Of a stretch of 41,454 nucleotides of DNA, positions 25,990 to 28,598 are shown piece by piece. The notes beneath the pieces are model-generated. The model saw only the letters and a program-made list of their open reading frames with translations, ran no database searches and was not told where the DNA came from. The first letter of the stretch is position 1; every line of letters begins with the position of its first letter. The position numbers and the translations under genes are program-made. Source of the stretch: Desulfosporosinus sp. (GTDB taxonomy: Bacteria; Bacillota; Desulfitobacteriia; Desulfitobacteriales; Desulfitobacteriaceae); contig DAIEHY010000002.1 in NCBI GenBank assembly GCA_027353165.1, positions 1 to 41,454 of the forward strand, written 5' to 3'.

Positions 25990-26436
25990 TTATATTGTTA
26001 AGAAGTTTCCGTAGAAGATAAATACTGCTCCGAGAAACAAGCGCATAATCGTAATAGAAAAACTTCTTATAACCTGACTCTTCTTATCTTTAGGGATAAA
26101 CCCTGTCCCAACCACTAGGACCCAAGTAATTATAGCCGCAAGTGGAGTAAGAAAAGCACCAAAGAAGACTAAACTGACCACACCTCCGACCAGTCCGTTC
26201 ACTGTCTTACCTTCGTTGGCTATTCTTCCAAGGATGAGTAGAGATATTATTCCAACCGTTCCTCCAATGAGCAGGGGTATTTGCCATTGCCAAAACTGTG
26301 CCCCTTCATTAAAACGATAATTGAATCCACTTAAGACTATTGTGGCTAAAACTGTTCCCCATATCCCGCCAAAGAAAATGATTCCTGCGAAAAAAATAAG
26401 TACCCCTTCAAATAATATTAGTTCAATAAATCCCAC
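25990..26436 (-). CDS. Hypothetical multi-pass membrane protein
   Basis: About five Gly-rich hydrophobic segments; GTG start at 26436 preceded by GGAGG. Confidence 0.72.
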   Translation of the reverse strand: MGFIELILFEGVLIFFAGIIFFGGIWGTVLATIVLSGFNYRFNEGAQFWQWQIPLLIGGTVGIISLLILGRIANEGKTVNGLVGGVVSLVFFGAFLTPLAAIITWVLVVGTGFIPKDKKSQVIRSFSITIMRLFLGAVFIFYGNFLTI

Positions 26437-26534: not shown

Positions 26535-26561
26535 ACTTTTTTCCAATTAATTTCATATTCT
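26535..26561 (+). promoter_or_regulatory. Sigma-K-like promoter for the Trp-rich peptide
   Basis: ACt-N16-CATATTCT, against the consensus ACm-N16-CATAnnnT. Confidence 0.45.
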
Positions 26562-26615: not shown

Positions 26616-26705
26616 ATGTGGTGGGGTCGCTGGGGCTGGGGTGGTTTCCCTTGGTGGGGCTTTGGATTTGGTCCATGGTGGGGCTTTCGTCGTTGGTGGT
26701 GGTAA
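26616..26705 (+). CDS. 29-aa Trp/Gly-rich peptide MWWGRWGWGGFPWWGFGFGPWWGFRRWWW
   Basis: Perfect AAGGAGG RBS 8 nt upstream of ATG 26616; TAA at 26703-26705; 11 Trp and 8 Gly; below the ORF-track size cutoff. Confidence 0.8.
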   Translation: MWWGRWGWGGFPWWGFGFGPWWGFRRWWW

Positions 26706-26899: not shown

Positions 26900-26926
26900 T
26901 AGAGGACCCTAAATAAGGGTCCTCTA
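26900..26926. terminator. Terminator hairpin ending the microprotein array
   Basis: Perfect 11-bp stem TAGAGGACCCT-AAATA-AGGGTCCTCTA, 20 nt past the last array stop codon. Confidence 0.7.
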
Positions 26927-26946: not shown

Positions 26947-27042
26947 TTAAAAGATAACCCCTAAGGCGATCAGAATTAAGATTGCAATTGCAATGATCCC
27001 AGCTCCTGCAAATCCACCAACGCCAGCTCCATACCCGTACAT
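26947..27042 (-). CDS. Microprotein B' (31 aa) MYGYGAGVGGFAGAGIIAIAILILIALGVIF, YjcZ/SscA-like
   Basis: GGAGGTG RBS; Gly-rich head and single C-terminal TM helix; paralogous to 27199-27345. Confidence 0.85.
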   Translation of the reverse strand: MYGYGAGVGGFAGAGIIAIAILILIALGVIF

Positions 27043-27081
27043 AAACTCACCTCCGCGTGTATTCACTTCACTTATTAGTTT

Positions 27082-27171
27082 TTAGAATACGATTCCCATG
27101 GCAATAAGCAAAAGAATAATCACGACAACGATTGCGATTCCAGCGCCAATTCCAGCTCCACCTGCAAACAT
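27082..27171 (-). CDS. Microprotein A' (29 aa) MFAGGAGIGAGIAIVVVIILLLIAMGIVF, YjcZ/SscA-like
   Basis: GAGGAGG RBS; paralogous to 27388-27519, with synonymous codon differences. Confidence 0.85.
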   Translation of the reverse strand: MFAGGAGIGAGIAIVVVIILLLIAMGIVF

Positions 27172-27198
27172 AGTTTTAACCTCCTCAAAATTTATTGT

Positions 27199-27345
27199 TT
27201 AGAAAATTACTCCTAAAGCAATTAAGATCAAAATAGCAATAGCAATGATCCCAACACCTACGCCAACTCCGACGGGTGCAACGACAGGTGCAGGTGCGCA
27301 ACAACCCACGCCGTATCCTGGACGAGAAGCTCCATATCCGTACAT
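27199..27345 (-). CDS. Microprotein B (48 aa) MYGYGASRPGYGVGCCAPAPVVAPVGVGVGVGIIAIAILILIALGVIF
   Basis: AAGGAGG RBS; same MYGYGA start and identical 17-aa C-terminus as B'. Confidence 0.85.
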   Translation of the reverse strand: MYGYGASRPGYGVGCCAPAPVVAPVGVGVGVGIIAIAILILIALGVIF

Positions 27346-27387
27346 GATTTACCCTCCTTTATTTTCCTATTGCTTAGATTAATAGAC

Positions 27388-27519
27388 TTAAAATACAATG
27401 CCCATGGCAATTAATAAGAGAATTATCACTACAACAACTGCAATTCCTGGTAAAAAGTTCGGTCCACATCCACATGCAGCACCATCTACACCATCAACGA
27501 CGCCTGCCCCGAAAGCCAT
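27388..27519 (-). CDS. Microprotein A (43 aa) MAFGAGVVDGVDGAACGCGPNFLPGIAVVVVIILLLIAMGIVF
   Basis: GAGGAGG RBS before ATG 27519 (the ORF track over-extends it to 27585); single TM at the C-terminus. Confidence 0.85.
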   Translation of the reverse strand: MAFGAGVVDGVDGAACGCGPNFLPGIAVVVVIILLLIAMGIVF

Positions 27520-27568
27520 ATCGAACAACCTCCTCTTTCCATAATCTGGGTTTTTATTGGGCTCACAG

Positions 27569-27596
27569 TAAGATATGTCAATCAAAGTTCAAGTGT
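27569..27596 (-). promoter_or_regulatory. Sigma-K-type promoter of the microprotein array
   Basis: ACA-N16-CATATCTTA matches ACm-N16-CATAnnnTA. Confidence 0.62.
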
Positions 27597-27630: not shown

Positions 27631-27661
27631 AAAAAAAATACCGTCCGAGAACGGTATTTTT
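27631..27661 (-). terminator. Terminator after the polysaccharide deacetylase gene
   Basis: AAAAATACCGT-CCGAGA-ACGGTATTTTT with a long U tail on the minus strand. Confidence 0.8.
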
Positions 27662-27665
27662 AATA

Positions 27666-28598
27666 TTAATAGTTCCAGTTTTGTAGGCGCCGAGAAAATT
27701 CATTTTGACCCATATTAGCATAGCAGTAAATACGTTGAATTTGCCATGCATCTGAATTGGGGTTTGCCCAACCCCGTTCGGTAGTAAAAGCCATCAAATA
27801 TCCAGTATCCTTGACTGCTTGTAAAACAGTCGAGTCAAAGTCTCCATTGGGATAGGCTAAAAAATCCACTGTCTTTCCAAGTCGATGTTCTAAAAGTTCC
27901 TTAGAACTTTTTAGTTCGTGCAACAAGGATATTCCATCTATTTTTGATAAATATGGATGGGTATCGGTATGTCCCTCAATCTCCCATCCATTAGCAACGA
28001 GTTCTTTTAGCTGTGGCCACGATAGAAAATTTTCTCCTCCTATATAACTAGAGACCATAAAGACTGTTGCCGTGAACCCATCCCTTCTCAAAATCGGGAA
28101 AGCAGTCGTATAATTATCGAGATAACCATCATCAAAGGTGATCACAAAAGGTTTGGGAGGTAAGCTAGCACCTTGATAAAAGGCTCGGTATAACTGATTT
28201 AAGGTGATACTTTGATAACCATTATCACGCAAAAAGTTCATCTGAGCCTCAAACTGGTCTGGTGGCATTCTCACTTCGTTTTCCGCCTCCAGCATAACCG
28301 AATGGTAATACAAGATGGGGATTGGTTGTCGCATATGTAAATCCGGAAGATCTGGTAAATCACTTAAGTTTTGCGAGTTTGAAAATTTATTCCATGGTTC
28401 CCTATATTCCTTTAATACCGAGTCAATAGCAGGCTTAGGTTCTTGATCAGAACCTGTCTGATTGATTAATCCCTGTCTTGTGGCAGTAGAGGTCAAGGCT
28501 TCAACAGACGATTGCGAGGAAGTTTCCAAGCCTTTACAACCATCAATTCCCATTACAAGAAAAATAACAATCAGTATTCTTACTATCTTGTTTACCAT
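27666..28598 (-). CDS. Secreted/lipoprotein polysaccharide deacetylase (CE4/NodB)
   Basis: IPILYYH, ITFDDGY, EGHTDTHP, LAYPNG; signal peptide ending IDGC. Confidence 0.9.
   Translation of the reverse strand: MVNKIVRILIVIFLVMGIDGCKGLETSSQSSVEALTSTATRQGLINQTGSDQEPKPAIDSVLKEYREPWNKFSNSQNLSDLPDLPDLHMRQPIPILYYHSVMLEAENEVRMPPDQFEAQMNFLRDNGYQSITLNQLYRAFYQGASLPPKPFVITFDDGYLDNYTTAFPILRRDGFTATVFMVSSYIGGENFLSWPQLKELVANGWEIEGHTDTHPYLSKIDGISLLHELKSSKELLEHRLGKTVDFLAYPNGDFDSTVLQAVKDTGYLMAFTTERGWANPNSDAWQIQRIYCYANMGQNEFSRRLQNWNY

Follow-up and report, generated by a model that had tools for sequence, protein, structure and literature searches.

The window (the whole stretch of DNA that we analysed, 41,454 nt) belongs to a Desulfosporosinus genome, G000, which is a 67% complete draft assembly. 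It carries an array of four small genes on the minus strand, with a polysaccharide deacetylase gene on one side and a convergent microgene, W, on the other. The features of the locus are:

27666..28598, minus strand: polysaccharide deacetylase gene (PF01522, E 7.8e-28), flanking and outside the module
27634..27661, minus strand: intrinsic-terminator-like stem with a T run (fold z -2.5)
27570..27596, minus strand: predicted sigma-K-type promoter (ACA at 27596-27594, 16 nt, CATATCTT at 27577-27570)
27388..27519, minus strand: ORF A, 43 aa, type A, ATG start, TAA stop, GGAGG just upstream
27199..27345, minus strand: ORF B, 48 aa, type B, ATG start, TAA stop, GGAGG just upstream
27082..27171, minus strand: ORF A', 29 aa, short type A, ATG start, TAA stop, GGAGG just upstream
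26947..27042, minus strand: ORF B', 31 aa, short type B, ATG start, TAA stop, GGAGG just upstream
26900..26926, minus strand: 11-bp perfect hairpin directly 3' of B' (-26.2 kcal/mol, z -5.1, 0/200 shuffles)
26616..26705, plus strand: microgene W, 29 aa, Trp/Gly/Arg-rich, convergent with the array, with a GGAGG site
26535..26561, plus strand: predicted sigma-K-type promoter of W (AC, 17 nt, CATATTCT)
25993-26436, minus strand: 148-aa membrane protein beyond the array, without a Pfam match, found in most orthologous loci

The four small ORFs with strong GGAGG sites that the preliminary description had proposed are all present on the minus strand, at 43, 48, 29 and 31 aa, and are separated by gaps of 42 (A-B), 27 (B-A') and 39 nt (A'-B'). 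ORF A consists of a Gly/Ala/Cys head and a 19-residue hydrophobic tail ending in AMGIVF, and ORF B of a Gly/Tyr/Cys-Cys/Pro head and a hydrophobic tail ending in ALGVIF; A' shares the tail of A and B' that of B, as had been described. The terminator and the hairpin that had been placed at the two ends of the array were also recovered, the first as a terminator-like stem with a T run at 27661-27634 and the second at 26926-26900. The stem is predicted to end the deacetylase gene, which lies 5' of the array in most orthologous loci and is missing from two (L006 and L007), and to insulate the four-gene module from upstream. The hairpin has no U tract and was not flagged by terminator calling; we infer that it is a 3'-end stabiliser or a weak terminator. 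A second A-B pair of G000, on contig C177 (13849-14136, locus L097), has a hairpin after it and lies downstream of ammonium-transporter-like and P-II-like genes, these neighbours being judged by eye.

The differences between the paired tails had been read as mostly synonymous and as a sign of selection on the protein, and the codon comparison agreed on both counts. The last 19 codons of A and A' show nine synonymous differences and one non-synonymous difference, and the last 17 codons of B and B' encode an identical peptide with 12 synonymous and no non-synonymous differences, which supports purifying selection on coding ORFs. Across the members collected from other loci, 242 distinct A-tail DNAs encode 40 peptides and 186 B-tail DNAs encode 25. 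Since the same ORFs recur in the loci of relatives and many tail DNAs yield few peptides, chance ORFs are excluded. Random pairs of members have about ten synonymous codon differences and 1.9 (A) or 1.1 (B) non-synonymous ones, and the synonymous sites of the tails are near saturation. Among the four ORFs, only ORF A had a letter-for-letter match in a collection of 15 billion proteins; the ESM Atlas contains ORFs A and B.

The array had been presented as a hidden operon. It is not a one-off: it represents a multicopy family that extends across the order and has the single A-B pair as its basic unit. In the host's taxonomic family, 57 of the 60 genomes contained matches to a strict tail pattern, with 2-35 copies in each and zero matches for the reversed control, and orthologous loci hold two or three A-B units, which bears out the duplicated two-gene module. 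Of 86 genomes in the order, which we take to be the Desulfitobacteriales and which is represented by three families, 81 were positive with the type A profile, as were none of nine genomes of f4, another family in the same class and presumably the heliobacteria (GTDB names). The type B profile was positive in 79 of the 86; the two extra negatives both belong to family f2, in which divergent B genes adjoin A (hhalign to B 96.5%). A draw of 401 genomes from Bacillota gave 13 positives for type A, all inside the order, and none among the 388 genomes outside it, where a looser A-profile search returned weak partial matches (best E 4e-4), mostly inside long reading frames. Named carriers, from a scan that covered 16 of 64 database parts and also returned some unrelated chance matches, are Desulfosporosinus, Desulfitobacterium, Paradesulfitobacterium, Acididesulfobacillus, Dehalobacter and Gracilibacter. 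The idea that most chromosomal copies derive from prophages found no support: the neighbours in 14 regions of G057 are mixed, several of them transposase-like, on an assessment made mainly by eye and with Pfam scans of three proteins. Database entries call the members 'hypothetical', except for one UniRef cluster named 'Sporulation protein YjcZ' without a Pfam domain, and literature searches outside subscription journals found the family described nowhere. We conclude that A/B is a real, undescribed and unnamed family, a two-component version of the YjcZ/SscA kind.

An excerpt of PMC3789822 describes sigma-E and sigma-K promoters as having a common -10 box and differing at -35 (ATA versus AC). 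From 126 first genes of A/B clusters we removed seven that were not truly first and reduced the remainder to 83 below 60% identity. The pattern AC[AC]-N16-CATAnnnT was found upstream of 31 of these 83 genes and a relaxed sigma-K-type motif upstream of 43, the patterns having been picked after viewing the upstream sequences; the strict motif is absent from 52 of the 83 and the relaxed one from 40. The strict pattern occurred 0.4 times on average and at most three times in shuffled controls (30 rounds), and upstream of 9 of 560 ordinary G000 genes. Sigma-E and sigma-G patterns matched none of the 83 first genes. TTAACA and CATA..TA do not vary in any of the 14 upstream regions aligned from orthologous loci, and G000 encodes sigK with a score above the cut-off. 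Neither the promoter of the array nor microgene W figured in the preliminary description. Just 3' of the -10 box, at 27545-27569 on the minus strand, TGTGAGCCC is near-invariant in the 14 orthologous regions and may serve as a binding site for a regulator or as part of the 5' leader. Many non-syntenic loci (for example L036, L041, L073 and L334) have upstream of them a second class of promoter, marked by a conserved CCATATTGT(TC/GG)CA element, which phage copies have too; the element resembles either two sigma-K-type promoters in tandem or an additional site for a regulator.

The family also tracks the sporulation gene spoIVA. Within the order, spoIVA and type A occur in the same 81 of 86 genomes and are both missing from the same five (G076, G078, G089, G090 and G040), which are drafts, 86-95% complete, from two genera and amount to about two independent events. 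Equally small drafts (G009, G036 and G071) keep both genes. The five genomes without spoIVA suggest that sporulation was lost at least twice in the order. Restriction to spore formers is a trait of YjcZ/SscA, and here all 81 carriers in the order have spoIVA and none of the five genomes without spoIVA carries the family. In f4, spoIVA is present in nine of nine genomes and type A in none, so the A/B family is not needed for sporulation in general. The sporulation role that had been proposed for the array is thus backed by a sigma-K-type promoter motif and by co-loss with spoIVA, and from these genomic patterns, together with an architecture that matches YjcZ/SscA, a late-sporulation role of A/B is very likely. 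In PMC6372793 supplement 8, SBF1_2240002 and SBF1_5650001, equated with type A only by contig number, strand and 126-nt length, show near-zero FPKM in non-sporulating populations, although one of them reached rank 56 in one of the control columns; these values are too sparse and uncertain to carry weight. In PMC11451228 supplement 3, no gene shorter than 276 nt appears in rows 31-45 of 45 for the pair-carrying contig.

Microgene W probably belongs to the same programme as the A-B array. It occupies the same place in most orthologous loci and has no Pfam or NCBIfam match, and the relaxed sigma-K-type motif was found upstream of 22 of the 30 W-type genes, many of which are orthologous and two of which have truncated or masked upstream DNA. 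Trp/Gly/Arg-rich genes also lie inside A-B arrays, on the same strand, at L113 and L296; the gene order of L113, an f2-type locus, is A-B-W-A-B-W, its W genes being putative counterparts, alike in composition, of the W in the window. A W profile search, which was insensitive and missed known copies, was positive in 20 of 95 genomes. One genome of family f3 encodes, between A-B genes, a 71-aa peptide that is rich in Gly and Trp and contains a hydrophobic stretch in its interior (L154:1784-1999, L220:53-268).

The A-B alternation seen in the window was examined in 60 complete clusters drawn from 80 genome-scan loci with 600-nt flanks. These comprised AB (35), A (9), ABAB (6), ABABAB (3), B (2) and BA (2), with one each of BAB, ABAABAB and BAAB. 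Unlike types were joined at 79 of 81 junctions, and an A neighbour was missing for 2 of 67 B genes and a B neighbour for 9 of 74 A genes. In a non-random sample of 160 clusters from all chromosomal loci, the other type was missing for 2 of 184 B and 21 of 205 A, and a larger, also non-random locus set held five AA and three BB junctions among 229. The alternation is kept in family f2 although both tails have changed there. Alternation therefore stands as the rule, but not as a strict one, since AA, BB, BA and BAAB arrangements and solitary A occur. The gene linkage suggests that A and B may pair physically; the same linkage would arise if an ancestral bicistron had been duplicated and its two products made no contact. 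Profile comparison indicates that the two types are related to each other (hhalign 93.6%).

The reading that we favour as probable is that the locus is a late mother-cell sigma-K array whose products, A and B, would co-assemble via their tails into a structural layer of the spore envelope. It is unlikely, in our judgement, that A and B instead act separately as sporulation microproteins, each self-assembling or binding a third coat protein, with linkage reflecting duplication history and shared timing and no A-B complex being formed. Separate action would fit all of the sporulation evidence equally well, and the mutual relatedness of A and B, the solitary A in 9 of 60 clusters and the single member at most YjcZ loci inspected speak for it. 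However, B is almost never alone (2/67), tandem expansions repeat the pair and not one gene, the phage copies come as pairs, and two distinct tails stay fixed across the order.

Protein anatomy was compared over 485 unique ORFs from the loci, which include a few false-positive B calls. Heads vary in length and contain about 32% Gly; tails are almost fixed. Tyr, Pro and Cys-Cys are typical of B heads, with Cys in 193 and Cys-Cys in 104 of 219 B. A charged residue occurs in the tail of 1 of 252 A and 1 of 219 B, and the tail ends in an invariant C-terminal Phe. Mean pairwise tail identity is 0.90 for A (n=252) and 0.93 for B (n=214), compared to 0.61 (n=24) for the YajC helix in the same order, the tail values being inflated relative to YajC because members were found by tail similarity and one genus dominates the sample. 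Such constancy of the tails, next to their near-saturated synonymous sites, would fit tight packing. AlphaFold predicted a helix at 22-39 in ORF A and at 25-47 in ORF B, each with a low-confidence head. A C-terminal sorting signal of the CTERM type was rejected: of the profile matches among 1.84 billion proteins, the best 150 of 205 are all <=100 aa, and no basic residues follow the tail.

A helix and a C-terminal Phe that do not vary would be consistent with a single constant partner, as expected if A and B were small one-helix proteins that modulate a membrane protein of the forespore or mother cell (for example a channel, a protease or a germinant receptor). Regulators, however, rarely call for as many as 35 copies or for long heads of Gly/Tyr/Cys, and no partner gene is linked across the loci; we regard this as the least probable of the explanations considered. 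A different structure for the tails would leave the joint envelope role of A and B intact: they could form cross-beta hetero-fibres, rodlet- or amyloid-like, rather than helices. The tails are rich in beta-branched residues (a fraction of 0.53 in A, reached by 55 of 902 TM segments of the genome), have no flanking charges, and in B alternate Ile with Ala/Leu. Against this, 148 of the 902 segments reach the beta-branched fraction of B and 77 its period-2 score, so that beta-strand periodicity of the tails was not significant relative to this set, and AlphaFold gives helices for both tails, which is weak evidence for such peptides. Cross-beta tails are, in our estimate, very improbable.

A-B pairs are also present on six IMG/VR viral contigs, the A of L333 being cut by the contig end; other IMG/VR contigs that matched were unrelated. 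On two contigs the pair lies just before terminase-portal-head genes, on two it lies among accessory genes after an endolysin, and on the remaining two, which are less clearly phage, it lies near an FtsK-like module. The phage contig regions with an A-B pair in accessory positions are:

L393:9198-11905
L388:5572-8450
L389:4512-10334
L392:8400-13815

All five viral contigs with intact upstream DNA have a host-type CATAnnnT promoter region. A tblastn search of B against 50,697 GenBank phages gave no match. An unnamed gene of 79-82 aa adjoins the pair at L332:503-751, L334:1207-1452, L336:2073-2312 and L339:969-1214, without a match in PHROGs (three tested) or Pfam (one tested). A 121-aa protein near the pair at L332:2347-2712 has no Pfam or PHROGs match and looked like a candidate spore-surface protein.

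Small, hydrophobic, paired and multicopy peptides in variable regions, with phage accessory slots near lysis and packaging genes, could also be a membrane-damaging pair: a sigma-K-timed, holin-like system for mother-cell lysis, a two-peptide bacteriocin or a type I toxin. We rank this as very improbable too, after the cross-beta tails. There is no leader peptide, tails with a charged residue number 1 of 252 in A and 1 of 219 in B, and the chromosomal loci have no conserved transporter, immunity or endolysin neighbour. In L389, L392 and L393 the lysis genes or the terminase are encoded on one strand and the pair on the other, and up to 35 conserved copies are unlike a toxin. Compared on leader, tail charge and neighbouring genes, the bacteriocin and type I toxin variants were rejected, since there is no leader, the tails are uncharged and no partner genes are conserved.

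If A and B co-assemble in the envelope as we favour, sigma-K would transcribe one short A-B-A'-B' message ending at the hairpin, and the separate strong ribosome sites would give similar amounts of A and B. Uncharged and leaderless, the peptides would not leave the mother cell and would settle on the surface of the forespore in the manner of SscA. Their tails would pack together on all faces, A being able to assemble by itself and B depending on A, and the variable Gly/Tyr/Cys heads, joined by disulfide and possibly dityrosine cross-links, would set the properties of the layer. Extra copies, phage-borne ones included, may provide higher dosage or varied exposed heads. By analogy with SscA, the layer is probably the inner coat and not the outer forespore membrane or the exosporium. 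A further-reaching version, possible but doubtful, has A and B as obligate subunits of a hetero-polymer with W as a third, forming a major, order-specific envelope layer with combinatorial heads and a phage-modified spore. If this were true, the invariant tails would allow any A to mix with any B, the loci, up to ~17 per genome, would be a combinatorial head library, and temperate phages would add a compatible A-B pair and so modify the spore in which they persist; the order concerned consists of sulfate-reducing and organohalide-respiring anaerobes.

Spore envelopes beyond Bacillus and a few clostridia are poorly known. Coat genes that are short and low in complexity are often missed, according to an extract of PMC3533761. 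The family offers a candidate structural envelope component for Desulfosporosinus, Desulfitobacterium and Dehalobacter, genera of importance in the sulfur cycle, in mine drainage and in the clean-up of chlorinated solvents, and type A is a marker that tracks spoIVA without exception in 86 genomes. A two-subunit YjcZ/SscA design, together with phage carriage, would bear on SscA-type assembly and on phage effects on dormancy. SscA already serves as a spore-display anchor (excerpt of PMC13417171), and A/B peptides could likewise act as such anchors in anaerobes.

The closest known system is YjcZ/SscA. Like its members, A and B are shorter than ~80 aa, with a variable Gly/Tyr/Cys-rich head and one conserved hydrophobic segment closed by Gly, and both groups are multicopy, with 11-12 YjcZ matches in two genomes. 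A mother-cell promoter is predicted for A/B from the sigma-K-type motif; yjcZ belongs to the sigma-K regulon according to a passage of PMC517825, and a CATAnnnT box was found at 15 of 16 YjcZ genes. SscA is described in part of PMC13417171 as a 28-aa, SafA-dependent inner-coat protein. By profile, however, the four ORFs lie outside YjcZ, as the loose resemblance first noted had implied: they had no match to PF09680 (YjcZ_2) or TIGR01732, models that matched 16 of 16 positive controls. Genome-wide, the YjcZ models gave one unrelated spot below the cut-off and nothing else, and at E<=1 none of 59 A members matched in Pfam and none of 60 B members in NCBIfam. The V-L-F-I-L-L-x-I core is invariant in 16 fetched YjcZ members; at the position of its Phe, 98% of A have Ile and B has Ile or Val, and A/B lacks the LFILL core. 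YjcZ/SscA has one type, whereas A/B has two fixed types in linked pairs; the A/B tail, unlike that of YjcZ/SscA, stops at an invariant Phe; and the ranges of YjcZ (Bacillales) and A/B did not overlap in the genomes searched.

The A tail aligns with the YjcZ core without gaps (hhalign 79-81%) and does so better than 902 of 902 G000 TM segments (margin 33.1 vs 32.8; shuffle P 0.003). The B tail is indistinguishable from background (34/902 TM segments, P 0.10); B matched YjcZ at 53% in hhalign, in the head only, and f2-type B at 1.7%. In the ESM Atlas the best named neighbour of B was YjcZ_2 (0.81; a lead only), and A had no usable match to named clusters. On these comparisons, remote common ancestry of the A tail with YjcZ stands at roughly even odds. 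A/B is a family that probably works like YjcZ/SscA yet is not a member as that family is defined.

Other comparisons are more distant. CotY/ExsY, CdeC/CdeM and YeeK are Cys-rich or Gly/Tyr-rich proteins of the spore coat or exosporium, and they resemble A/B in late mother-cell expression, which for A/B is a prediction, and in low-complexity, cross-linkable sequence. They are not known to have a conserved hydrophobic C-terminal tail or a paired gene unit, and A/B had no sequence match to these families in Pfam or NCBIfam. Temperate-type phages of spore formers reportedly carry host sporulation functions; the known phage case is a sigma factor, whereas the phages here carry a pair of putative structural proteins of the envelope, with a promoter of the host type. 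By analogy, A/B also recalls the silkmoth chorion A/B proteins, two related kinds of structural protein that are encoded in multicopy pairs, form a protective shell and have a conserved core with variable Gly/Tyr/Cys arms. The chorion genes differ in being eukaryotic and divergently paired and in encoding secreted proteins, and we claim no homology between the two systems.
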